A stretch of DNA of 11,497 nucleotides from a bacterium (GCA_025782345.1 JALGZG010000260.1:1-11497); one strand, 5' to 3'. Shown: positions 1 to 11,237, counted from the stretch's first letter. A program made the numbers and translations. The notes: generated by a model from the sequence alone, not told the origin.

Positions 1-393
1 GTCGTCTGGGCCCTCACCGGGATGTGGAGGCAGCAGCACCAGCCGACCATACTGCCCAACGGCAGGATGCTTCTCTTCGACAACAAGGCAGGGACGGAGG
101 TTTCCAGGGTCATGGAGCTCGACCCCTTCTCACAGGCCGTGGCGTGGAGCTACCGTGGCACGCCGGAGCGTCCCTTCTACAGCGAAACGTGCGGGTCCAA
201 CCAGAGGCTTCCGAACGGCAACACGCTCATCACCGAATCGGACAACGGCAGGGCGTTCGAGGTGACTCCCGAGGGAACCGTCGTCTGGGAGTACATCAAC
301 CCCAACCATGCGGGCCCCGACGGCGAGTACGTAGCGACGCTCTTCGAGGTCGTCAGACTGCCTTCCGCAAAGCGGCCGGACTGGATGGAGTAG
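1..393 (+). CDS. 3' portion of a secreted beta-propeller-like protein, paralog P0 of the three genes at 3807..7829. It is 5'-truncated by the window edge. Possibly arylsulfotransferase (ASST)-like family.
   Basis: The frame is open from nt 1 (VVWALTGMWRQQHQPTILPNGRMLLFDNKAG...). The C-terminal 130 aa align block-by-block with the C-termini of the three downstream paralogs (QHxP..L.NGN..(V/L)FDN, RLPNGNTLITESD.GRAFEVTPEGTVVWEY.NP, ATLFEV.RLP, DW(M/L)E). Stop TAG at 391-393. Confidence 0.75.
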   Translation, partial: VVWALTGMWRQQHQPTILPNGRMLLFDNKAGTEVSRVMELDPFSQAVAWSYRGTPERPFYSETCGSNQRLPNGNTLITESDNGRAFEVTPEGTVVWEYINPNHAGPDGEYVATLFEVVRLPSAKRPDWME

Positions 394-394
394 G

Positions 395-1222
395 CTACTG
401 CTCCACGCCGCTCGTCAACCCCTCCACGATCCTTTTCTGGAAGAGCGCGACCAGCGCGAGAACCGGTAGTACGCTCACGACCGTGGCGGCCGCGATCGTC
501 GCCCACGGCAGCTCGTGCAGTCCTGCGAAGAGCGCCAGCGCGACCGGGACCGTTCGCGACTCCGGAGTGGACGTGAGTATCAGCGCGAAGAGGAACTCGT
601 TCCACGCGAATATGAAGATCAACACCGCCGCCGTGAACACGCCGGGCGCGGCGAGCGGCAGTATGATCTGGAAGAACGCCCTCGCCGGCGTGCACCCGTC
701 CACCATGGCGGCGTCCTCCAGGCTCGTGGGGAGCGTCGAGAAGAAGTGCGTGAGGATCCACACGGCCAGCGGCAGCGACAGCAGGGTGTAGGGGAGGACG
801 AGCGCCGGGTAGCGGTTGATGAGCCCGAGCCTCGCCATGCCGAGGTAGAGCGGTCCTATCATGCCGATGGCCGGGAAGATGGCTATTCCCAGGAAGAGCG
901 CCATTATCAGGTTCTTGCGTTTGACCTTCAGCCGGGCCAGCGCGTAGGCCGCCGGAGCGCCGAGCGCGAGCGTGAGGAGTGTTGTCAGGGACGCCACGAC
1001 GAAACTGTTCGCTATGTTCCGCGGGAACTGGTTGACCTCGAAGACCGCCCGGAAGTTCTCGGACACGGCCGGGTTGGGGAAGTAGTCGAGCGGCCTCTTG
1101 TACAGCGCGTTGGGCGACGACAGCGCTACGTTCAGGATCCAGTAGAGGGGGAACAGGCACGCGACCACGAGCAGCCCCCTCGCGACCCACAGCCACAGTG
1201 TCTTTCCCCGGAATCGTCTCAC
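395..1222 (-). CDS. Carbohydrate ABC transporter permease (MalG/UgpE-like, CUT1 family). Probable GTG start at 1222 overlapping the upstream permease stop (GTGA).
   Basis: The translation shows six TM segments and an EAA loop (EDAAMVDGCTPARAFFQIILPLAAPG). The six-frame ORF 395..1762 has no internal ATG before the TM core and overlaps the upstream permease by 540 nt, so it is over-extended. A GTG at 1222..1220 sits directly on the TGA of the upstream gene, with AGGGGA 8 nt upstream. The resulting 275 aa length is typical for this family. Confidence 0.8.
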   Translation of the reverse strand: MRRFRGKTLWLWVARGLLVVACLFPLYWILNVALSSPNALYKRPLDYFPNPAVSENFRAVFEVNQFPRNIANSFVVASLTTLLTLALGAPAAYALARLKVKRKNLIMALFLGIAIFPAIGMIGPLYLGMARLGLINRYPALVLPYTLLSLPLAVWILTHFFSTLPTSLEDAAMVDGCTPARAFFQIILPLAAPGVFTAAVLIFIFAWNEFLFALILTSTPESRTVPVALALFAGLHELPWATIAAATVVSVLPVLALVALFQKRIVEGLTSGVEQ

Positions 1223-2094
1223 CGCGTTTCCCCTGATATCCGCATGAACCGGATGAGCCCGAGGCTCAGTACGAACACGATGACGAAGAGCGCTACCGTC
1301 ATCGTCGAGCCGTAGCCGAGGTCCCCGTACCTGAAGAGGACTCTGTAGATGTAGATGGAGAGCGTCTCGGTGCGCGACGCTCCGCCCGTCAGCACCCAGA
1401 TCAGGTCGAAGACGCGGAAGGCGTCCATCGTTCTGAAGAGCACCGCGATGGCGATGAAGGGCTTGAGAAGTGGGAGCGTGATGGAGCGGAACACCGCCCA
1501 GCGCCCGGCCCCGTCCAGCGCGGCTGCCTCGTAGTACTGGTTGGGGATCGATTTCAGGCCCGCCAGCAGAATGATGGCGACGAAGGGGGTCGTCTTCCAC
1601 ACGTCGGCGAGAATGACCGACGTCATCGCAAGCCTGGGCCCGAGCCAGACGATGGGTTCTCCCATCAGACCCAGTCGCTCGAGGACGGAGTTGACGAGTC
1701 CGATCCGGTCGTTGAGAAGCAGCGACCACATGGTCGCCGCAACGACCGTGGGGAGTGCCCACGGTACCATGAGCGACGAGTTCATCGCCGTCCGACCCCT
1801 GAGCACCCTGTTGAGGACCAGCGCCGCCGCGAGACCAAGGACGAGCTCAAGTCCGACCGAGACCACCGTGAAGTACGCGGTGTGTCCCAGGTCCTGCCAG
1901 AAGACCCCGTCGGAGACGAGCTGCGCGAAGTTCGAGAGCCCCGCGAACCCGCGCTCGTCCGCGAACTTCAGGTTGAACTTCGTGAAGCTCAGCGCGAACT
2001 GGCTGAGCACGGGGAAAGCGCCCAGGACCACCACGAACGTGAGCGCGGGTGCGAGAAGCCAGAATGCGAGGCGTGCTCTCTGCCTGGCGTTCAT
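1219..2094 (-). CDS. Carbohydrate ABC transporter permease (MalF/UgpA-like, CUT1 family), 291 aa.
   Basis: N-terminal MNARQRARLAFWLLAPALTFVV TM segment, multiple TM segments, and an EAA motif EAAALDGAGRWAVFRSITLPLLKP. It is 26 nt downstream of the SBP gene on the same strand. Confidence 0.85.
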   Translation of the reverse strand: MNARQRARLAFWLLAPALTFVVVLGAFPVLSQFALSFTKFNLKFADERGFAGLSNFAQLVSDGVFWQDLGHTAYFTVVSVGLELVLGLAAALVLNRVLRGRTAMNSSLMVPWALPTVVAATMWSLLLNDRIGLVNSVLERLGLMGEPIVWLGPRLAMTSVILADVWKTTPFVAIILLAGLKSIPNQYYEAAALDGAGRWAVFRSITLPLLKPFIAIAVLFRTMDAFRVFDLIWVLTGGASRTETLSIYIYRVLFRYGDLGYGSTMTVALFVIVFVLSLGLIRFMRISGETR

Positions 2095-2120
2095 CGGGTG
2101 TCGTCTCTCCCGGCCGTTGC

Positions 2121-3368
2121 CTACTCCGCCATGATCTCCGCGAGCTCCCTCACCATGTCAGCGGCGGCCGTAGCGGGCTCGATCTCGTACGTGAGGGTCC
2201 GATGAACGTTTTCTTGAATGATGTCCGACATGCGCGGGTAGTGAGGAGACCTGGGTCTGTTGCGCGTGTTCTGGAAGACCTCGGAGAAGCTCGCGAAGTG
2301 AGGATTCGCAGCCAGGACGTCCGCGTCCTCGTAGGTGCGTCTCAGCGTCGGCAGGTAACCGCCCTCGATCGCACGTTCCTTCATCGACCTCTCGCCCGTG
2401 ATAAAGCGCAGGAAGTCCAGCGCCTCGTCGGGATGCTCGCTGTAGGTCGACAGTGCGATGTTCCAGCCGCCTATCGTCGAGTAGCTCGTCTGCCCCTCCA
2501 CGTGAGGCAGGGGCGCGATACCGGCCAGGCCTTTGATCTTCGATCCCTCGCCCTCCGCCACGCTCCACACGTAAGGCCAGTTCCGGAGAAAGAGCGCCCG
2601 CCCCTCCGTGAAGAGCCGGCGCGAGTCCTCCTCCTTGTAGGTCAGCACTCCGGCGGGGGAGATCCCACTGTCGAGGAAGCTGAGCATCAGCCCGAGGGCC
2701 TCGGTCACGCCTCGCTCCGCGTCCGCGGGCCTCTCGACCACCGTCGCTTCGTCGAGCGTGCCGCCCACGCTCCACAGGAACTCGAGGAAGTCACACACCA
2801 GCCCCTCGTACCGGGCGCCCTGCCAGACGAAGCCGTCCATCCCCCTGGGTTCGGCTATCTCTCTACAGGCGCGGCGGAAGTCCGTCCACGTCTCGGGTAC
2901 GGGGACCCCCGCTTCCTCGAGGAGGTCCTTGCGATAGTACAGCACGCCGGCATCCGTGAACCACGGCACCGCGTAGAGCGTCCCCTTGTAGGTCACGCTC
3001 GCAAGCGGGCCGTCGAGGAACTCGTCGGTCCGGATGTAGCCCTCGGGTAGCGCCACAATCCACCCGGCGCGTGCGAACTCCGCGGTCCAGATCACGTCGA
3101 GGCTGTAGAGGTCGATGCTCGACTCGCGCGCGGACAGGTAGGTCACGTAGGCGTCGTGTTGCGTGTCGGTGTTCGCGGGCATCGCCTGGAACTCGACCCG
3201 CACACCCGGATGGGCGGCGTTGTACTCGTCGACCAGCGCCTCCGTGGCGCCGGACGGGTCGTTGCCGGCGGCGAAAACTATCTGGATGTCGCCGCTTTCC
3301 TGGGACGAACATCCGACGAGCGACATGGCGGCCAGGCAGCACAGCGCGACTGCGGTCATCGTTCTCAT
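2121..3368 (-). CDS. Extracellular solute-binding protein family 1 (sugar/oligosaccharide ABC transporter SBP), lipoprotein.
   Basis: SBP family-1 like sequence (WPYVWSV, GGWNIALS, AVPWFTDAGVLYYRKDLLEEAG). An internal ATG at 3368 gives MRTMTAVALCCLAAMSLVGC-SSQ, a lipoprotein signal with an LVGC lipobox. It is preceded by GGGAGGAG about 8 nt upstream. The ORF-track start at 3428 would add 20 non-signal residues (MARKPPRDGPDP...). Confidence 0.85.
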   Translation of the reverse strand: MRTMTAVALCCLAAMSLVGCSSQESGDIQIVFAAGNDPSGATEALVDEYNAAHPGVRVEFQAMPANTDTQHDAYVTYLSARESSIDLYSLDVIWTAEFARAGWIVALPEGYIRTDEFLDGPLASVTYKGTLYAVPWFTDAGVLYYRKDLLEEAGVPVPETWTDFRRACREIAEPRGMDGFVWQGARYEGLVCDFLEFLWSVGGTLDEATVVERPADAERGVTEALGLMLSFLDSGISPAGVLTYKEEDSRRLFTEGRALFLRNWPYVWSVAEGEGSKIKGLAGIAPLPHVEGQTSYSTIGGWNIALSTYSEHPDEALDFLRFITGERSMKERAIEGGYLPTLRRTYEDADVLAANPHFASFSEVFQNTRNRPRSPHYPRMSDIIQENVHRTLTYEIEPATAAADMVRELAEIMAE

Positions 3369-3435
3369 GGAAGGACTCCTCCCGATGCGCGTGGGATCAG
3401 GACCGTCGCGCGGCGGTTTCCTGGCCACCGCGTGG

Positions 3436-3446
3436 TGTGAGGTTCA
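3436..3446. promoter_or_regulatory. Short inverted repeat GTGA-ggt-TCAC immediately downstream of the predicted -10 of the SBP promoter, a candidate operator.
   Basis: Seen directly in the sequence (gtgaggttcac). Its position overlaps the predicted TSS of the minus-strand promoter. It is only 4+4 bp, so the support is weak. Confidence 0.2.
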
Positions 3447-3449
3447 CTC

Positions 3450-3478
3450 ATGCTAAGAGGAAGCGACGCCGGTGTCAA
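3450..3478 (-). promoter_or_regulatory. Sigma70-like promoter for the SBP-permease-permease operon. On the minus strand: -35 TTGACA (3478..3473), 17-nt spacer, -10 TAGCAT (3455..3450).
   Basis: The reverse complement of 3450..3478 reads TTGACAccggcgtcgcttcctctTAGCAT. It has a perfect -35 hexamer, canonical 17-nt spacing and a 4/6 -10 match. It lies about 80 nt upstream of the SBP ATG at 3368. Confidence 0.4.
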
Positions 3479-3613
3479 TCGGAGCGTGCATGGTTGAGAG
3501 CGCGCACGGTTGAGGTGAGCGGCGCTCGCTGCTGCCGGCCCGTTTCCCAGGCACGTTCTGCCTCACGGTGAGCGGGCTGCCGGCAGGTGTGCGGCATCGG
3601 ACCCCGGGACAGC

Positions 3614-3642
3614 TTGGGCAGGCGTGCGCGTCGTGCTATATT
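3614..3642 (+). promoter_or_regulatory. Sigma70-like promoter for the paralog operon: -35 TTGGGC (3614..3619), 17-nt spacer, -10 TATATT (3637..3642).
   Basis: cTTGGGCaggcgtgcgcgtcgtgcTATATTcg. The AT-rich hexamer is conspicuous in 68% GC DNA. Spacing is 17 nt. It lies about 165 nt upstream of the ATG at 3807 and sits inside the spurious N-terminal extension of ORF 3624..5168. Confidence 0.4.
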
Positions 3643-3806
3643 CGTTCGGTAGGCAGCACGCTGACGGAACCGCCGCACCGAGCGGGCCGCAGCACCGAAT
3701 CGACAGAGTCACGCCGGCGGCAGGGTCTCAGAGACGTCCGCCGGCCTCACAACGCAGCCCGGACGGAGGGCCCTCGGGCCCGCCGGACCGGCGCTGGAGG
3801 TCAGTG

Positions 3807-5168
3807 ATGATCCTGAACACGGGGGGACATTCCCGCCGGGGTATCAGACAGGCCCACCTGAGCGCGCTGCTGACGCTCGCTCTCTTCCTTGCAGCGTCGG
3901 TCCTCGCGCCGACGGCGTGGGCCCAGGACGATGACGACGATCCGACACGGGCCAACGAGATGACCCCTCGATCCGGCGTCAACACACCACCCGGGCGGTG
4001 GCTGCCCGCCAGGAACCAGGAGAGTCCGTCACAGCTCACCGAGGAGCAGCGGCGCGAGATCGACAGGATCAACACCATCGGCTACCTGGGAGGCCACTAC
4101 GAGCCTCCGGTGACCACGGGGCTGACCGTCCACGACCCTGAGCGCGCGTGGAGCGGCTACAACCTCTACACGTCCGGGCATTTCCCGGGCGCCATACTGA
4201 TGGACATGGAGGGGAACATCCTCCACACATGGAGATGTGCGTTCCTGGACGCATTCCCGAGCAGGGCGGACATCCTGGAGCCCGACCGCTCCAACCGCTG
4301 GCGCTACGTCCACCTGTTCGACAACGGCGACGTGCTTGGGATCTACGAGGGTCTCGGGCTCGTCAAGCTCGACGTGGACTCGAATATCATCTGGTCGCAT
4401 CAGGGCAACGAGCATCACGATCTCAAGGTCGCCGATGACGGCAGCATCTTCGTCCTGAGCAGAGAAGCGCACATGGTGCGCCGGCTGAACCAGCGGGACC
4501 CCATCCTCGAGGACTTCCTCACGATACTCAATGCTGATGGGAGTGTGATCAAGCGGTTCTCGCTTCTCTCCGCGCTCGAGAAGTCACGCTTCACGAACAT
4601 CATCAAGTCATCGGGCATGGACAGAAAGGGAGACATCTTCCACACGAACGCCGTGGAGATACTTGACGGGAGCCTGGAGTCGGAAATACCGGCGTTCAAG
4701 AAGGGTAACATCCTCACGTCGTTCCGGCGGCTGGACACGATCGCGGTCGTCGACGTGGAACTGGAGGAGGTCGTGTGGACGCAGTTCGGCCTGTGGCTCG
4801 CTCAGCACGACCCGACGCCGCTGCCGAACGGCAATCTCATGGTCTTCGACAACAGGGGGCATTACGGGGACTCGAAGGTCGTGGAGTACGATCCGACGAA
4901 CATGGACATCGCATGGATGTACGTCGGCAGTAATGAGCACCCGTTCTTCACCAGCGCCGGTGGGGCCAACCAGCGTCTTCCCAACGGCAACACGCTCATC
5001 ACGGAGTCCGACTACGGTCGCGCATTCGAGGTGACGCCCGCAGCTGAGATTGTCTGGGAGTACTTCAACCCGGCCCGCGCGGGCCAGACCGACGGGTTGA
5101 TCGCGACGATATTCGAGATGACCCGGTTGCCCGCGGATTTCCCGCTGGATTGGCTGGAGGGGAGGTAG
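3807..5168 (+). CDS. Secreted beta-propeller-like protein, paralog P1 (453 aa), possibly ASST (arylsulfotransferase)-like family. N-terminal signal peptide.
   Basis: The ATG at 3807 is preceded by GGAGG (3795..3799). N-terminus is MILNTGGHSRRGIRQAHLSALLTLALFLAASVLAPTAWA-QDDDDD (signal peptide with AxA site). Conserved blocks are shared with P0, P2 and P3. The residues upstream of 3807 in ORF 3624.. are Arg/Pro-rich, non-protein-like, and overlap the predicted promoter. Confidence 0.85.
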   Translation: MILNTGGHSRRGIRQAHLSALLTLALFLAASVLAPTAWAQDDDDDPTRANEMTPRSGVNTPPGRWLPARNQESPSQLTEEQRREIDRINTIGYLGGHYEPPVTTGLTVHDPERAWSGYNLYTSGHFPGAILMDMEGNILHTWRCAFLDAFPSRADILEPDRSNRWRYVHLFDNGDVLGIYEGLGLVKLDVDSNIIWSHQGNEHHDLKVADDGSIFVLSREAHMVRRLNQRDPILEDFLTILNADGSVIKRFSLLSALEKSRFTNIIKSSGMDRKGDIFHTNAVEILDGSLESEIPAFKKGNILTSFRRLDTIAVVDVELEEVVWTQFGLWLAQHDPTPLPNGNLMVFDNRGHYGDSKVVEYDPTNMDIAWMYVGSNEHPFFTSAGGANQRLPNGNTLITESDYGRAFEVTPAAEIVWEYFNPARAGQTDGLIATIFEMTRLPADFPLDWLEGR

Positions 5169-5171
5169 CAG

Positions 5172-6452
5172 TTGACCGCAGCTTCTCGCTTCGCCGCGGT
5201 TCTTGTCGCAGTCGCGCTCGCGGCCGCTCCCGCGGTCCGCGATGCCGCCGCGCTCGAAGGCAGCGAGGTTCCGGAAGGGCGCTGGCGCGCGGCGGAGCCG
5301 CGCGCGAAGTCACTGCACAGAGAGCTGACGGAGGAGCAGCTGCGCGACGTGGAGAGGCTCCGGTCGATCGGCTATCTTACCGGCTCACAGCCGGCGCCGC
5401 TCGTGACGGGGCTCACCGTCCACGACGCTTCGCGTGCGTACCGAGGGCTGAACCTCTACACGTCCGGTCACTTCCCCGGGGCCGTTCTGATGGACATGGA
5501 TGGCAACGTCCTGCACATGTGGGAGCGGAGCTTCCTCGATATCTGGCCCGACCGCTACGCCGACTTCGATTCCGAGAATGCCCAGTACTGGAGATTCGTC
5601 CACCTGTTCGACAACGGTGACGTGCTCGCGGTATTCGAGGGCCTCGGGCTTGTCAAACTGGACAGGGACTCGCGGGTCATCTGGACACATACGGGCGGCG
5701 ACCACCACGATCTCAAGGTGACGGAGGACGGCCTCATCTACGTTCTTACCCGCGAGGTTGTGATCGACCCCCGCATCAACGCGGACGAGCCCATACTGGA
5801 GGATCATGTTACGATCCTCGATTCGGACGGACGGGAGCTCAGAAGCGTATCGGTGCTCAGCGCCATGGGCAATTCCAGCTACCTGCATCTGATGGCGGGG
5901 ATGAGCGCCAAAGGCGACATCTTCCACACGAACGCCATTGAGATACTCGACGGAAGGCTGGCGGACGAGCTGCCCGCCTTCAAGGCGGGGAGCGTCCTTC
6001 TGTCGCTTCGGACGCTCAGTCTCCTTGTGGTTCTGGACCTCGACGCCGGGCTGGCCACGTGGGTGTGCAAGGGGGCGTGGCGCAAGCAGCACGATCCGTC
6101 CGTGCTCGACAACGGCAACATTCTCATCTTCGACAACAACGGAAACAACGACAGGTCGCGCGTCATCGAGTTCAACCCGGTCACTGACAGGATCGAGTGG
6201 GTATACCAGACCGTGCCGGCGGATGGCTTCTACTCGCAGATGTGCGGCGCGGCAACGCGGTTGCCCAACGGCAACACGCTCGCGACGGAATCGGACCGTG
6301 GCAGAGCGATCGAGGTGACGCCGGACGGTGACACCGTCTGGGAATACCTGAACCCGAAGCGAGCGGGAGATAGAGGGGAACTCGTTGCGACGCTCTTCGA
6401 GATGATCCGTCTGCCCGCGGATTTCCCGCTGGATTGGCTCTACGATCGTTAG
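5172..6452 (+). CDS. Secreted beta-propeller-like protein, paralog P2 (426 aa). TTG start, 3 nt after the P1 stop.
   Basis: GGAGGGGAGG-TAG-cag-TTG is a strong SD spanning the P1 stop, with TTG at 5172. The signal peptide is MTAASRFAAVLVAVALAAAPAVRDAAA. The protein is about 50% identical to P1 and P3 across the full length. Confidence 0.85.
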   Translation: MTAASRFAAVLVAVALAAAPAVRDAAALEGSEVPEGRWRAAEPRAKSLHRELTEEQLRDVERLRSIGYLTGSQPAPLVTGLTVHDASRAYRGLNLYTSGHFPGAVLMDMDGNVLHMWERSFLDIWPDRYADFDSENAQYWRFVHLFDNGDVLAVFEGLGLVKLDRDSRVIWTHTGGDHHDLKVTEDGLIYVLTREVVIDPRINADEPILEDHVTILDSDGRELRSVSVLSAMGNSSYLHLMAGMSAKGDIFHTNAIEILDGRLADELPAFKAGSVLLSLRTLSLLVVLDLDAGLATWVCKGAWRKQHDPSVLDNGNILIFDNNGNNDRSRVIEFNPVTDRIEWVYQTVPADGFYSQMCGAATRLPNGNTLATESDRGRAIEVTPDGDTVWEYLNPKRAGDRGELVATLFEMIRLPADFPLDWLYDR

Positions 6453-6476
6453 GCACCTCACGGGAGGCCGGTCGAC

Positions 6477-7829
6477 ATGTATCTGAGGCACAGAGCAGCG
6501 CGCAGACGCCCCGCGATGACGTGGATCCTCACGGGGAAGGTGCTTTTGATTGCGGTCTTGACCGCGTCGGCGATCGCGCTGTGTTCGAGGGCCGTCACGG
6601 GCAACGACGGCAAGCAGTGGAGCAACGAGCCGGCTGCCGGCTCGGAGGACCCCGGACCGCCCGGCAGGTGGCGGACCGCGCGGGGAGAGGCGAAGGAGAA
6701 GCTCTCGGCCGAGCAGGCCCGCGAGATCGCGAAGCTACGCTCCCTCGGGTACCTCTCCGGCTCGACCCCCGCTCCGGACGACTCCGGCGTGGTTCTGTTC
6801 GACGCGGCGCGGGCCTGGTCGGGGCTGAACTTCTTCACGTCCGGGCACTTCGCCGGCGCCATACTCATGGATATGAACGGGCACGTGCTCCACGAATGGA
6901 GCTACGATTTCCTCGAGGCGTGGCCCGACGAGACCGAATCGGCCGAGAACGACGGCGCGGAATATTGGCGATGGGCCCACCTCTACGAGAACGGCGATCT
7001 GCTGGCGATCTTCGAGGGGCTGGGGCTCATCAAGCTGGACAAGGACTCCCACCTTATCTGGAAGCACTACGGCGCCGAGCACCACGACCTCGAAGTGGTG
7101 GACGACGGCAGCATTTACGTCCTGACGAGGAAGGCCCGCATGGTTCCTCGTGTCAATGAACGGATGCCGATTCTCGAGGACTTCGTGACCGTGCTTGACG
7201 CATACGGCCGCGTGATCCGGGAGGTGTCCGTGCTCGAGGCGTTCGAAAATTCCGCCTTCGCCAGTTCTCCCGCCGCACGCGACATGCCGAAGCGGGGGGA
7301 CATCTATCACACCAACGCCATCGAGGTGCTCGACGGTCGACTCGCAGATCGTCTCCCGGCCTTCCGGCGGGGCAACGTGCTCCTCTCGATGAGGCAGCTC
7401 AGCACAATCGCGGTGCTGGATGTGGACCTCCAGGAGATTGTCTGGGTATCGTCCGACATGTGGCTCGAGCAGCACGACCCCAAGGTGCTCGAGAACGGCA
7501 ACATCCTCGTCTTTGACAACAAGGGCAACGACGGGCAGTCGAAGATCGTGGAATTCGATCCTGTCACGCGGGAGACCGAGTGGAGCTACAGCGGGGACGC
7601 CTCATCGATGTTCTTCACCAGGATGTGCGGTGCTGCCCACCGCCTGCCGAATGGAAACACGATAATCACCGAATCGGACTACGGCAGGGCGTTCGAGGTC
7701 ACGCCGGCGGGGGAGATGGTCTGGGAGTTCCTCAATGCGCACCGTGCGGGGAAGCACGGCAATCTCATTGCCACGCTCTTCGACGTCATCAGACTCGACC
7801 CCGACTTCCCCGTGGACTGGCTGGAGTAG
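6477..7829 (+). CDS. Secreted or membrane-anchored beta-propeller-like protein, paralog P3 (450 aa).
   Basis: The ATG at 6477 has GGGAGG 9 nt upstream. An alternative ATG lies at 6516 (MTWILTGKVLLIAVLTASAIALC...). There is a hydrophobic N-terminal segment. The protein is collinear with P1/P2 and has all the conserved blocks. Confidence 0.85.
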   Translation: MYLRHRAARRRPAMTWILTGKVLLIAVLTASAIALCSRAVTGNDGKQWSNEPAAGSEDPGPPGRWRTARGEAKEKLSAEQAREIAKLRSLGYLSGSTPAPDDSGVVLFDAARAWSGLNFFTSGHFAGAILMDMNGHVLHEWSYDFLEAWPDETESAENDGAEYWRWAHLYENGDLLAIFEGLGLIKLDKDSHLIWKHYGAEHHDLEVVDDGSIYVLTRKARMVPRVNERMPILEDFVTVLDAYGRVIREVSVLEAFENSAFASSPAARDMPKRGDIYHTNAIEVLDGRLADRLPAFRRGNVLLSMRQLSTIAVLDVDLQEIVWVSSDMWLEQHDPKVLENGNILVFDNKGNDGQSKIVEFDPVTRETEWSYSGDASSMFFTRMCGAAHRLPNGNTIITESDYGRAFEVTPAGEMVWEFLNAHRAGKHGNLIATLFDVIRLDPDFPVDWLE

Positions 7830-8146: not shown

Positions 8147-9433
8147 ATGACACGGCTCAAGCGCGCGACGATCGTGCTTCCCTTGGTTGTCCTTCTGCTT
8201 GGTGTGGTCGTGCCCGTTCTTCTGGAGCGGGACGACTCCGTCCGGGCATCCCGCGTGGAGGTTCGCGAGGCGCGGACCTCCGGCAGGACGGCGGGGGAGT
8301 GGGCGAAGCTCGCCTACGTGGCACAGAAGCGGGGTAAACTGAGGGAGGCCCTCTCGTACATCAAGACGGCGGAGAGCGTCAACCCTGGCGCTCAGTACGC
8401 CACCGAACTCAGGGAGATCAGGAAGGCCAGGCACAGGGCATCCGAGGCCGAGCGCAGCCGCCGCAGGTTGACCGAAGGCCCCGTCGATCACGTCGTTTTC
8501 GGCGAAGACGGAGCAGTCGCGTCGGCTCACAGGCGGGTCACCGTTCTGCCCGGCGAGAGTCTCTGGACGCTGGCGCGTGATCTCGTGGCCGCCGGGCGCC
8601 GCGTTTCCACCGATGAGGTCGCCGGCGGCGACAGGGACGTCTACCGGACGTGGGACGCGCTCACGGCACTGAACGGCGTCCGCGAGCTGGAGGTGGGAGA
8701 GCGCGTTCGGGTGCCGCTCTTCCTTGCCGAGCAGACGGCGCTGGCGGACGCGAACCGGCGGGACCACGAGCGGATAGCGGCCGCATCCTCGGCCCTGGCC
8801 GAGGGAGACATCGACGGTGCGGCCAGGCTGCGGGGAGAGTTCGAGGAGGGCTTCGCCGAGACGACCGCCGAGTGCCGGCAGCTCGACGACGCGCTCGCCG
8901 CGGCTATAGAGGAGCGAACCGTGAGGCTCGAACTCGACCGTGAGCGCGCGCTCGTGAACGATGTCCGCGACGCCCTGGCGCGAGTCCCCGGGATGCCTCG
9001 GGCCACGCGGCACTCCGAGCGCCTGGACATACTGAACGGGGCGCTGGTCGCGCTGTCGGAGGCGGAGGCACTCCGCGGAGGGGCCCAGTACTCAGACGCC
9101 GCCGAACTCGTGGCGCGACTCCTCTCCGAGGAGATGAGGTTCACGATCGGACCCGACGGAACGGTGCTGGCGGCCAAGTCCACCGGTGTGAGCTACACGC
9201 AGGCGGCACGCCGCGTTGTCGAGTGGGTTCTCGAACGGGAGCTGCGCGCGAGCGGTCGGAGCTTCCCGCATTCGAACGAGAAGTCGGCGGACGAGAAGGC
9301 GTGGGCGCGATACCTGGCGGACGCGGCCCGCGAGGCGGGCAAGAGAGGGGTGGACTTCACCGCGCTGCTTGAGGCCGTCGATGAGAACGTCGAGCTTCTG
9401 CTGCCGGACCCGGTGGCCTACTTCGCGGACTGA
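8147..9433 (+). CDS. Hypothetical membrane-anchored protein (428 aa). It has an N-terminal TM helix, a LysM-like segment and a long alpha-helical Ala/Arg/Glu-rich C-terminal domain.
   Basis: The ATG at 8147 has GGGGAGG 8 nt upstream. MTRLKRATIVLPLVVLLLGVVVPVLL is a TM anchor. Residues ~129-191 (RVTVLPGESLWTLARDLV...ALTALNGVRELEVGERVRVPL) follow a LysM-like pattern (V.PGESLW.LA...LN......VGE...VP). The 103 codons upstream in ORF 7838.. are Arg-rich junk and contain the terminator hairpin. Confidence 0.7.
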   Translation: MTRLKRATIVLPLVVLLLGVVVPVLLERDDSVRASRVEVREARTSGRTAGEWAKLAYVAQKRGKLREALSYIKTAESVNPGAQYATELREIRKARHRASEAERSRRRLTEGPVDHVVFGEDGAVASAHRRVTVLPGESLWTLARDLVAAGRRVSTDEVAGGDRDVYRTWDALTALNGVRELEVGERVRVPLFLAEQTALADANRRDHERIAAASSALAEGDIDGAARLRGEFEEGFAETTAECRQLDDALAAAIEERTVRLELDRERALVNDVRDALARVPGMPRATRHSERLDILNGALVALSEAEALRGGAQYSDAAELVARLLSEEMRFTIGPDGTVLAAKSTGVSYTQAARRVVEWVLERELRASGRSFPHSNEKSADEKAWARYLADAAREAGKRGVDFTALLEAVDENVELLLPDPVAYFAD

Positions 9434-9513
9434 GCGGGGGCGCCGGCGTCACACGATCCTCGTTGAGCGAACCCGATATCGCCGCCATCCTGTCCGGGGG
9501 GAGGCTTCGAGGC

Positions 9514-10305
9514 ATGCCGCACTCGGGCCGCTCCCGGACGGGAGGCGCCATGGCCCACTGGACGGACGACTTCTTCACGGGCTACTGGTCGATGATGCAA
9601 AAGGCCGCGCCGATGACGGGCGTGGCCGCCGAAGAGACGTGTGTTCTGCGGAAGATCCTCAGGCTCCGGAAGGGGAGCAGGGTTGCCGACGTGCCGTGTG
9701 GAGACGGACGCATCTCGCTCGAGTTGGCCAGGGCCGGGTGCAGGGTCGTGGGCGTGGATGCCTGTGAACGAAGCGTGCGGCGGGCCCGGAGGCAGTTTGG
9801 GAAGGCGGGGCTTCAAGGCACGTTTCATCTCGGCGACATGCGGGACCTCCGGTTACCGCGTGAGTTCAACGCCGTCATCAACTGGTGGGGGAGCTTCGGC
9901 TACTTCGATGAGGCGACGAACAAGCGTGTCCTCAAGGGGTTCGCGGACGTCCTCAAGCCGGGTGGGCGGGTTCTCATCGATCAGGTCAACCGCGAGCGCG
10001 TCCTCAGGCAGTTCCGTGGGAAGGACGTGTTCAGATGGGGCGGGGTCACGGTGACGACCCGGAACACCTGGGACGCGAAGCGCCAGCGCATCAACGGCTC
10101 GTGGCTCTTCGAGCGCGGGGGCAGACAAGAGCGCCGGCGGAGCTCCATCAGGCTCTACACACCCTCCGAGATGAGGGCTCTGATGGAGTCCGCCGGGCTC
10201 ACTGTCGAACGCATCTGCGACGGCAAGACCGGGCTTCCGTTCACGCGCGGAAGCCTGCGGATGTCGACCGTCGGACGGAAGCCGCGGGCCGCTCCGCGGT
10301 CCTAG
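9514..10305 (+). CDS. Class I SAM-dependent methyltransferase (Methyltransf_11/25-like). The start is uncertain: TTG 9463, ATG 9514 or ATG 9550.
   Basis: Motif I VADVPCGDGRISLELARAG, an acidic residue after beta2 (VGVDACE), motif post-I LGDMRDL, motif II FNAVINWWGSFGYF and motif III LKPGGRVLI. GGAGG lies 10 nt before ATG 9514, and GGGAGG lies 4 nt before ATG 9550. Confidence 0.8.
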   Translation: MPHSGRSRTGGAMAHWTDDFFTGYWSMMQKAAPMTGVAAEETCVLRKILRLRKGSRVADVPCGDGRISLELARAGCRVVGVDACERSVRRARRQFGKAGLQGTFHLGDMRDLRLPREFNAVINWWGSFGYFDEATNKRVLKGFADVLKPGGRVLIDQVNRERVLRQFRGKDVFRWGGVTVTTRNTWDAKRQRINGSWLFERGGRQERRRSSIRLYTPSEMRALMESAGLTVERICDGKTGLPFTRGSLRMSTVGRKPRAAPRS

Positions 10306-11237
10306 TTCCCCGTCATCTGCTTCAGGAGTTTGAAGTAGTCGCCGTCGGTCGTCAGTATCAGCGTGCTCTCACTGTCCAGCGTCGTCTTGTAGCTCTCGAG
10401 GGTCCTCAGGAACGAGTAAAACCCCGGGTCGCGACCGAAGGCGTCGGCGTAGATCTTGGCCGCGTCGGCGTCGGCGTTCCCCTTCAGCTCCTCCGCGATG
10501 CGGTACGCCCCGGACGTTATCCGCTGGAGTTCCTTCTCCTTCTGGCCGCGTATCTCCGCGCTCTGGCCCTGTCCCTCGGACCTGTAGCGCTCGGCGATTC
10601 TCTGGCGCTCGGAGATCATCCGCTCGTAGACCTTCTGCCGGACCTCCTCGACGTAGTTGACGCGCTTGATCTTCACGTCGACGAGCTCGATGCCGTACCT
10701 TGGCATCTGCTCCGCCGCGCGCTCGAGAACCAGCGCCGCGATCTCCGACCGGCCTATCCCGATCTCCTCCTGCGCCTCGCGAGGGACGTCCATCTCGAAG
10801 ATCTCCATCTCGCGATTCGTATTCCGGACGACCTCGAGGAGGTTGTGGCTGGTCAGGAGGTCGCGCGTGATGGCGTCGATGATGTCGTCCAGCCGTGCGT
10901 GTGCACCGATCTCGTCCGTCACGGACTGCATGAACTTGAGCGGGTCGGCGATGCGCCAGCGGGCGAACGTGTCGACCCAGATGTACCTCTTGTCCCTGGT
11001 AGGGATCTGTCGCGGACTGCCGTCCCACTCGAGGATGCGCTTGTCGAACGTGTTCACCTTCTGGATGAACGGCACCTTGATCTTGAGTCCGGGCTCGCTG
11101 ACGGCGTCACCGATGGGTTTCCCAAACTGGGTGATGATGATCTGTTCGGTCATGTCGACCACGTAGAGCGAGTTCGTCAGGACGATGAGCCCCAGGAACG
11201 CTGCCACCACCACTATTGCGAGTCTGGTCGTCTTCAT
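10302..11237 (-). CDS. hflC: Protease modulator HflC (SPFH/band-7 domain membrane protein), 311 aa.
   Basis: N-terminal TM (MKTTRLAIVVVAAFLGLIVL). It is collinear with E. coli HflC (EPGLKIKVPFIQKV, RIADPLKF, YGIELVDVKIKRVNY, ADAAKIYADAFGRDPGFYSFLRTLESY). AAGGAGG lies 6 nt upstream. The ATGA overlaps the stop of the upstream hflK. Confidence 0.9.
   Translation of the reverse strand: MKTTRLAIVVVAAFLGLIVLTNSLYVVDMTEQIIITQFGKPIGDAVSEPGLKIKVPFIQKVNTFDKRILEWDGSPRQIPTRDKRYIWVDTFARWRIADPLKFMQSVTDEIGAHARLDDIIDAITRDLLTSHNLLEVVRNTNREMEIFEMDVPREAQEEIGIGRSEIAALVLERAAEQMPRYGIELVDVKIKRVNYVEEVRQKVYERMISERQRIAERYRSEGQGQSAEIRGQKEKELQRITSGAYRIAEELKGNADADAAKIYADAFGRDPGFYSFLRTLESYKTTLDSESTLILTTDGDYFKLLKQMTGN

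Follow-up and report, generated by a model that had tools for sequence, protein, structure and literature searches.

Four ancient paralogs of an arylsulfotransferase-like propeller family in a conserved neighbourhood of Candidatus Eisenbacteria

The bacterial DNA stretch JALGZG010000260.1:1-11497 of assembly GCA_025782345.1 (11,497 nucleotides, hereafter the window), whose nearest homologs are labelled Candidatus Eisenbacteria and whose G+C content lies between 59 and 72% across the 11.5 kb, carries four related genes, P0 to P3, on either side of a sugar importer of the ATP-binding cassette (ABC) type. We are highly confident that their products are six-bladed propellers of the aryl-sulfate sulfotransferase (ASST) superfamily, within the branch described by the Pfam model Arylsulfotran_2 and with Cpz4 as the closest solved relative. 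Judged from their sequences, they are probably extracytoplasmic enzymes, secreted or membrane-anchored, that would act by ping-pong transfer through a sulfo-histidine and would have become specialised as paralogs. The branch is an uncharacterised part of a known enzyme family and not a new kind of system, and related proteins in metagenome-assembled genomes (MAGs) already bear the labels 'arylsulfotransferase family protein' or 'aryl-sulfate sulfotransferase'. According to a 2026 review, the roles and natural substrates of bacterial sulfotransferases that are independent of 3'-phosphoadenosine 5'-phosphosulfate (PAPS) are poorly understood, and the E. coli ASST is the only one whose crystal structure has been solved (PMC13426309).

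The original prediction had guessed at an ASST-like family of multi-bladed propellers, and both parts of the guess were borne out. When the proteins were compared with Pfam by HMMER, Arylsulfotran_2 (PF14269; curated gathering cut-off 27 bits) matched all four, with 53.2 bits for the P0 fragment and 88.3, 89.0 and 92.5 bits for the other three, and Arylsulfotrans (PF05935; cut-off 24.2 bits) matched P1-P3 with 29-48 bits. Confident placement in the BamB, PQQ or another propeller family, named beforehand as fatal to the guess, did not occur, and NCBIfam contained no model matching P0-P3. A single-sequence phmmer search with P1 found no match in the PDB; a profile of 55 homologs found only one among the PDB sequences, namely Cpz4 (9kf4/9kf6, E 8.5e-5), and in the HMMER alignment of profile A3 with 9kf6 the conserved blocks are in register (hHD with LHD, DifHtN with DYVHIN, GNvl.S.R with GNLLLSGR, and QHD, FDN and LPNGN each with its identical counterpart). 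The AlphaFold2 model of P2 (predicted local distance difference test, pLDDT, 86.7; predicted template modelling score, pTM, 0.82) consists of an N-terminal helix followed by six four-stranded blades, and this fold superposes on that of Cpz4. The literature on PF14269 consists of plant, algal and fungal surveys only; we found no paper joining Eisenbacteria with a sulfotransferase, and none relevant to the Cpz4 entries 9KF4/9KF6, which were released in 2025.

In the E. coli ASST, His436 is the transiently sulfurylated nucleophile, and the active site also includes His252, His356, Asn358, Arg374 and Thr501 (PMC13426309). The mapping of these residues was made with hhalign, profile to sequence, on the E. 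coli CFT073 protein (gene at L082 28858-30654; the mature numbering, which is that of the precursor minus 27, was checked residue by residue). His356 falls on P2 H252, Asn358 on N254, Arg374 on R280, His436 on H307 and Thr501 on C358; the Cpz4 alignment, which is independent, and the superposed folds agree with this assignment. Conservation was assessed in 270 homologs, of which 120 are close and 150 each represent a cluster at 50% identity: H307, H252 and N254 are each conserved in 269, as is H178, and H179, the second member of the HHD pair, in 268. The window copies P0-P3 all retain the equivalents of H307, H252 and N254 as well as the HHD pair, and at the Thr501 position P0, P2 and P3 have Cys and P1 has Gly. 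The histidines of the HHD and HTN blocks had been put forward as catalytic, which stands for HTN, the counterpart of E. coli His356/Asn358, whereas for the HHD pair no match among the listed E. coli active-site residues was found; the predicted nucleophile is the histidine of the QHD block, which had been listed among the conserved blocks but not singled out. In the P2 model, R141, H178/H179, H252, H307 and C358 stand where the innermost strand begins in blades 2 to 6, an arrangement in which they would encircle the central channel at one of its mouths. The four genes are given below with the equivalents of the E. coli sites.

1..393, plus strand: P0, the last 130 codons of a 443-residue ASST-like propeller gene, with the nucleophile His codon at 37-39; assigned by PF14269 (53 bits), by the clade signature and by the whole gene in locus L001 (3891-5222).
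3807..5168, plus strand: P1, a 453-residue ASST-like propeller, assigned by Pfam, alignment and site mapping; H279 (4641-4643), N281, R307 and H334 (4806-4808), with Gly at the Thr501 position.
5172..6452, plus strand: P2, a 426-residue ASST-like propeller whose start codon is TTG; H252 (5925-5927), N254, R280 (6009-6011), H307 (6090-6092) and C358.
6477..7829, plus strand: P3, a 450-residue ASST-like propeller, assigned by Pfam and site mapping; H278 (7308-7310), N280, R306, H333 (7473-7475) and C384.

That these are four collinear, diverged paralogs sharing a series of blocks, with pairwise identities of ~45-55%, had been noticed at the outset, and the open reading frames (ORFs), the matching called genes on contig JALGZE010000218.1 (GCA_025782355.1) and the alignments all agree. 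Full-length P0-P3 can be aligned over their whole length, the blocks in question included (alignments A1 and A4), and are 47-55% identical in pairs; each scores 595-703 bits against the family profile, so that their likeness is far above chance. The part of P0 that lies in the window shows the C-terminal blocks only (QH.P, NG, FDN, RLPNGNT.ITESD.GRA.EVTP, VWE and DW), and its N-terminal blocks are present in the complete gene in L001. Every full-length copy has a single N-terminal hydrophobic segment behind basic residues, which is a putative export signal; P1 has a putative cleavage site between AWA and Q, P0 has a lipobox-like VVGC, and the segment of P3 may be a signal anchor. Only ~90 residues precede the propeller in the P2 model, namely the hydrophobic segment, then a linker modelled with low confidence, then a single helix. 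The linker contains an invariant GRW (window 5277-5285, or P2 G36-R37-W38; present also in P1, P3 and full-length P0), and the helix carries LTEEQ...L(R/K)(S/A)(I/L)GY(L/I) in all four proteins (window 5328-5378, or P2 residues 53-69). A ...LGY(L/I)-like motif also ends neighbouring ORFs of the Phosphodiest family, for example that at L024 7746-9731 (...EKLRAMGYLE).

The choice between recent and ancient paralogy, which had been left to phylogeny, falls on the ancient side. In a neighbour-joining tree (54 family members, syntenic loci; no bootstrap) P0, P1, P2 and P3 fall into four separate clades, each holding the positional counterparts from other genomes of Eisenbacteria. The comparison with L083, a genome further removed, gives 65-73% identity for positional orthologs and 45-55% for non-positional pairs. 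The rate of synonymous substitution (dS) between paralogs is ~1.0-1.6, near saturation, and the ratio of nonsynonymous to synonymous rates (dN/dS) against orthologs is 0.18-0.31 for all copies. Taken together, positional orthology, low dN/dS and near-saturated dS indicate that the four-gene layout is old and that each copy is under purifying selection, as the common-fold argument of the original prediction had presupposed. A recent tandem duplication was considered and is ruled out by the positional orthology and the saturated dS between paralogs.

The clades also differ at positions that align with the active site. The P0 clade has Leu at the Arg374 position and QHQ in place of QHD (Gln after the nucleophile, at the Asp308 position), the P1 clade has Gly for Cys358 (the Thr501 position), and in a single-copy clade the nucleophile is followed by Met. 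These substitutions would fit a divergence in substrate specificity, and on account of them the four copies most likely take different donors or acceptors. Two orthologs of the P1 clade (L007 2737-3894 and L009 1665-2918), which sit on long branches and come from two Eisenbacteria MAGs without a P2 copy, carry Leu in place of the nucleophile His and have also lost further conserved histidines; both look catalytically dead.

The other features of the window are as follows.

395..1222, minus strand: ABC permease 2 (MalG/UgpE-like); PF00528, sub-threshold NCBIfam matches to GlcU/MalG/UgpE; a called gene.
1219..2094, minus strand: ABC permease 1 (MalF/UgpA-like); PF00528, sub-threshold NCBIfam matches to UgpA/GlcT/MalF.
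2121..3368, minus strand: solute-binding lipoprotein of a sugar ABC importer (solute-binding protein, SBP), of the trehalose/maltose-binding-protein type; PF01547/PF13416, lipobox LVGC.
3369..3806, no strand: 438-bp intergenic stretch that separates P1 from the divergently oriented SBP gene; consensus scan only.
8147..9433, plus strand: 428-residue membrane-anchored protein without family assignment; context, found by synteny always after the array in Eisenbacteria.
9463-10305, plus strand: class I S-adenosylmethionine-dependent methyltransferase; the best sub-threshold NCBIfam match is to a methyltransferase of the daptide type (RiPPs, peptides made on the ribosome and modified after translation).
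10302-11237, minus strand: HflC, with HflK just past the window end.

The ABC operon converges with P0 and diverges from P1; the intergenic gaps are 3 nt between P1 and P2 and 24 nt between P2 and P3. The whole set had been described as co-transcribed; given these short gaps and the position of the ABC genes on the opposite strand, the description can apply to P1-P2-P3, the only genes that could plausibly share one transcript, but not to P0 and the ABC genes, which are transcription units separate from them. The window's best sigma-70-like match (TTGACA-17-TAGCAT, 3478-3450, minus strand) is a consensus match only and not functional evidence, and a weaker site in the divergent intergenic region (3615-3642, plus strand) is likewise a consensus match. 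An Rfam scan of the window returned zero RNA families, and a terminator scan gave hits that were not above those in shuffled sequence. The protein encoded at 8147-9433 has an N-terminal membrane segment and matched nothing in Pfam or NCBIfam, apart from faint LysM and TPR hints. The methyltransferase, HflC and HflK genes belong to the conserved neighbourhood and show no obvious connection with the propellers.

The SBP has as its closest solved relatives T. maritima MalE3 (6dtq, E 4e-90), the T. litoralis trehalose/maltose-binding protein (1eu8, E 1e-72) and SmoF (7nbz, E 3.5e-61), with a T. thermophilus homolog also among them; the importer is therefore taken to be of the alpha-glycoside/disaccharide type. 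It shares with CUT1 importers of the trehalose/maltose type (1EU8, 6DTQ and 7NBZ) an SBP (E 4e-90 to 3.5e-61) followed by two MalF/MalG-like permeases, and differs from them in that no ATPase gene is part of the operon. An ABC ATPase gene was found neither in the window nor in L001, and none of the importer genes reached an NCBIfam equivalog cut-off. In many ABC systems of this kind the ATPase is a shared one whose gene lies elsewhere.

In many Eisenbacteria MAGs the same order is encountered: an OmpA-like protein, an fn3/FlgD_ig protein, a beta-helix protein, P0, two permeases, the SBP, P1-P3, a membrane protein of the 428-residue type, the methyltransferase, HflC and HflK. Across these MAGs, one to three propeller copies separate the SBP gene from the downstream membrane-protein gene, and at least seven family members occur in some genomes (L011, L016 and L026 from one MAG; L041 and L044 from one contig). 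The locus had been viewed as an accessory one that expands the substrate range. As the four-gene layout, the gene order and the flanks recur across Candidatus Eisenbacteria, this view is not upheld, and the array is a conserved chromosomal neighbourhood rather than an accessory island. Upstream of P0, outside the window, L001 encodes on the minus strand a right-handed beta-helix protein (PF13229, 2690-3733) and a large fn3/FlgD_ig protein whose tail is of the type IX secretion system kind (320-2362). These two genes, which are conserved beside P0 in several Eisenbacteria, could mark a polysaccharide-processing neighbourhood.

The family extends well beyond this phylum. An exhaustive search recovered 8,667 cluster representatives (50% identity) at E <= 1e-3 and 2,079 at E <= 1e-30, with matches spanning Eisenbacteria, Hydrogenedentota, Planctomycetota, Acidobacteriota, Nitrospirota, Myxococcota and others; the branch occurs mostly in environmental MAGs and is frequent among sediment and soil phyla that are uncultured. 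Of the best 150 representatives, about 13 are fusions in which a polytopic membrane domain of 5-11 hydrophobic segments precedes the propeller, the His residues of the latter being intact. One of them (P0135) exceeds the Pfam cut-off for PMT_2, and the others have sub-threshold likeness to AftB-like, ArnT, Agl23 and LA_3751 glycosyltransferases. Fusion or adjacency to such a domain was recorded for entries P0125, P0135, P0144, P0146, P0163, P0165, P0173, P0180, P0192, P0206 and P0221 and at L029 7918-9900, L078 7646-9766, L055 7326-9086, L033 12566-14371 and L028 8068-9819, and unfused homologs of the membrane domain adjoin the propeller gene in loci of Acidobacteriota, Planctomycetota, Spirochaetales and Myxococcales. 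In a further fusion (P0145) the partner is a Phosphodiest domain (PF01663, alkaline-phosphatase superfamily). ORFs resembling the N-terminal domain of this fusion surround a single ASST-like gene in the Eisenbacteria loci L024 (7746-9731, 1285-3564, 3455-5782 and 11254-12633; the first, the single ORF scanned, is confirmed as Phosphodiest by Pfam) and L034 (4145-6424, 6315-8549 and 12636-14186). On sequence grounds, such fusions and adjacencies would put the propeller outside the cytoplasm, and they suggest glycan or ester chemistry.

Two known enzymes provide the most useful comparisons. Cpz4, from caprazamycin biosynthesis in Streptomyces sp. MK730-62F2 (PDB 9KF4/9KF6), acts on a sugar hydroxyl, which it sulfates (PMC13426309). 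It is 18-20% identical to the window proteins and has in common with them the fold and the HD, H-x-N...R and QHD blocks; however, it is encoded in an antibiotic gene cluster, of which there is none at the window, and the window proteins are set apart by their N-terminal export or anchor segments, the conserved GRW...LTEEQ...LRSIGYL module and their occurrence as four old paralogs. The E. coli CFT073 ASST (EcAST/AssT, PDB 3ELQ, PF05935) is 17% identical and shares the six-bladed propeller, the aligned nucleophile His436 and His356/Asn358. The window proteins lack its N-terminal seven-stranded beta-sandwich (426-453 residues versus 598), and have Cys or Gly for Thr501 and, in P0, Leu for Arg374. 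Moreover, assT of E. coli CFT073 is adjoined by dsbL/dsbI, whereas neither the window nor L001 contains a thioredoxin-like or DsbB-like gene.

In the reading that we favour, a sulfate-ester donor would sulfurylate the invariant QHD-block histidine (P2 H307), the H-T-N pair (H252/N254), with Arg280 in P1-P3, would hold the sulfuryl group, and the group would then be handed on to a hydroxyl acceptor. That the substrates are sugars or glycosides, tied to the neighbouring trehalose/maltose-type importer, we infer only weakly. Several observations weigh against the favoured reading. Identity to Cpz4 and the E. coli ASST is just 17-20%, and the hhalign match to the latter is weak when taken alone (probability 29%, E 6e-4). 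The Arg374 equivalent is kept in 199 of the 270 homologs and is Leu in P0. E. coli His252 aligns near the invariant R141 and not with a His (extended hhalign, low confidence), the candidates for its equivalent being R141 or the HHD pair. Pfam and NCBIfam scans of the window found neither a sulfatase nor a Dsb partner, nor any pathway for a sulfate-ester donor. Finally, the ABC linkage is essentially absent outside Eisenbacteria, and may be inherited gene order without shared function.

It is unlikely that P0-P3 are mainly His-dependent sulfate-ester hydrolases, which would use water as the acceptor and desulfate disaccharides or glycosides outside the cell for the importer to take up the product. 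We know of no ASST-type enzyme with hydrolysis as its physiological role. The catalytic residues would be identical to those of a transferase, the conserved adjacent importer belongs to a group that includes the sulfoquinovosyl-glycerol binder SmoF, and the conserved protein upstream of P0 has a beta-helix fold, which is common among polysaccharide-degrading enzymes; but the ABC genes lie on the other strand, so that there is no transcriptional link, the importer linkage is confined to one phylum, and the 2026 review describes transfer only (PMC13426309).

It is equally unlikely that the ASST scaffold serves another group transfer here, for example of phosphoryl groups via a phospho-His, on envelope glycoconjugates and with partners of the glycosyltransferase C (GT-C) type or of the alkaline-phosphatase superfamily. 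The His-intact fusions to GT-C-like membrane domains, the unfused membrane-domain genes beside the propeller gene in several phyla, the Phosphodiest fusion and the Phosphodiest genes of L024 and L034 would all be in keeping with such a role. However, a glycosyltransferase fusion fits glycan sulfation equally, the conserved residues are the sulfuryl binders of the E. coli ASST, and Pfam detects no GT-C or Phosphodiest gene in the window. It is most improbable that P0-P3 are non-catalytic binding propellers (receptors or scaffolds) descended from ASST enzymes, since H307, H252, N254 and the HHD pair are kept in all four and near-invariant over the 270 homologs, which is unexpected for a pure binder, even though the L007 and L009 orthologs, having lost the nucleophile, suggest that non-catalytic derivatives do arise.

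A broader and much more speculative scenario would be that the branch consists of PAPS-independent modifiers of sugars or envelope glycans outside the cytoplasm, which would show for the first time in what physiological setting free-living bacteria use ASST-type enzymes; such enzymes would be GT-C-coupled in several phyla and represented in Eisenbacteria by specialised paralogs tied to a trehalose/maltose-type importer. Were this so, the Eisenbacteria paralogs might, for example, make or recycle sulfated disaccharides. The co-residence of four paralogs that differ at active-site-aligned positions, the conserved sugar importer, and the recurrent glycosyltransferase-like fusion or adjacency elsewhere offer handles on function, and enzymes of the P0-P3 type are candidate biocatalysts for cofactor-free sulfation.

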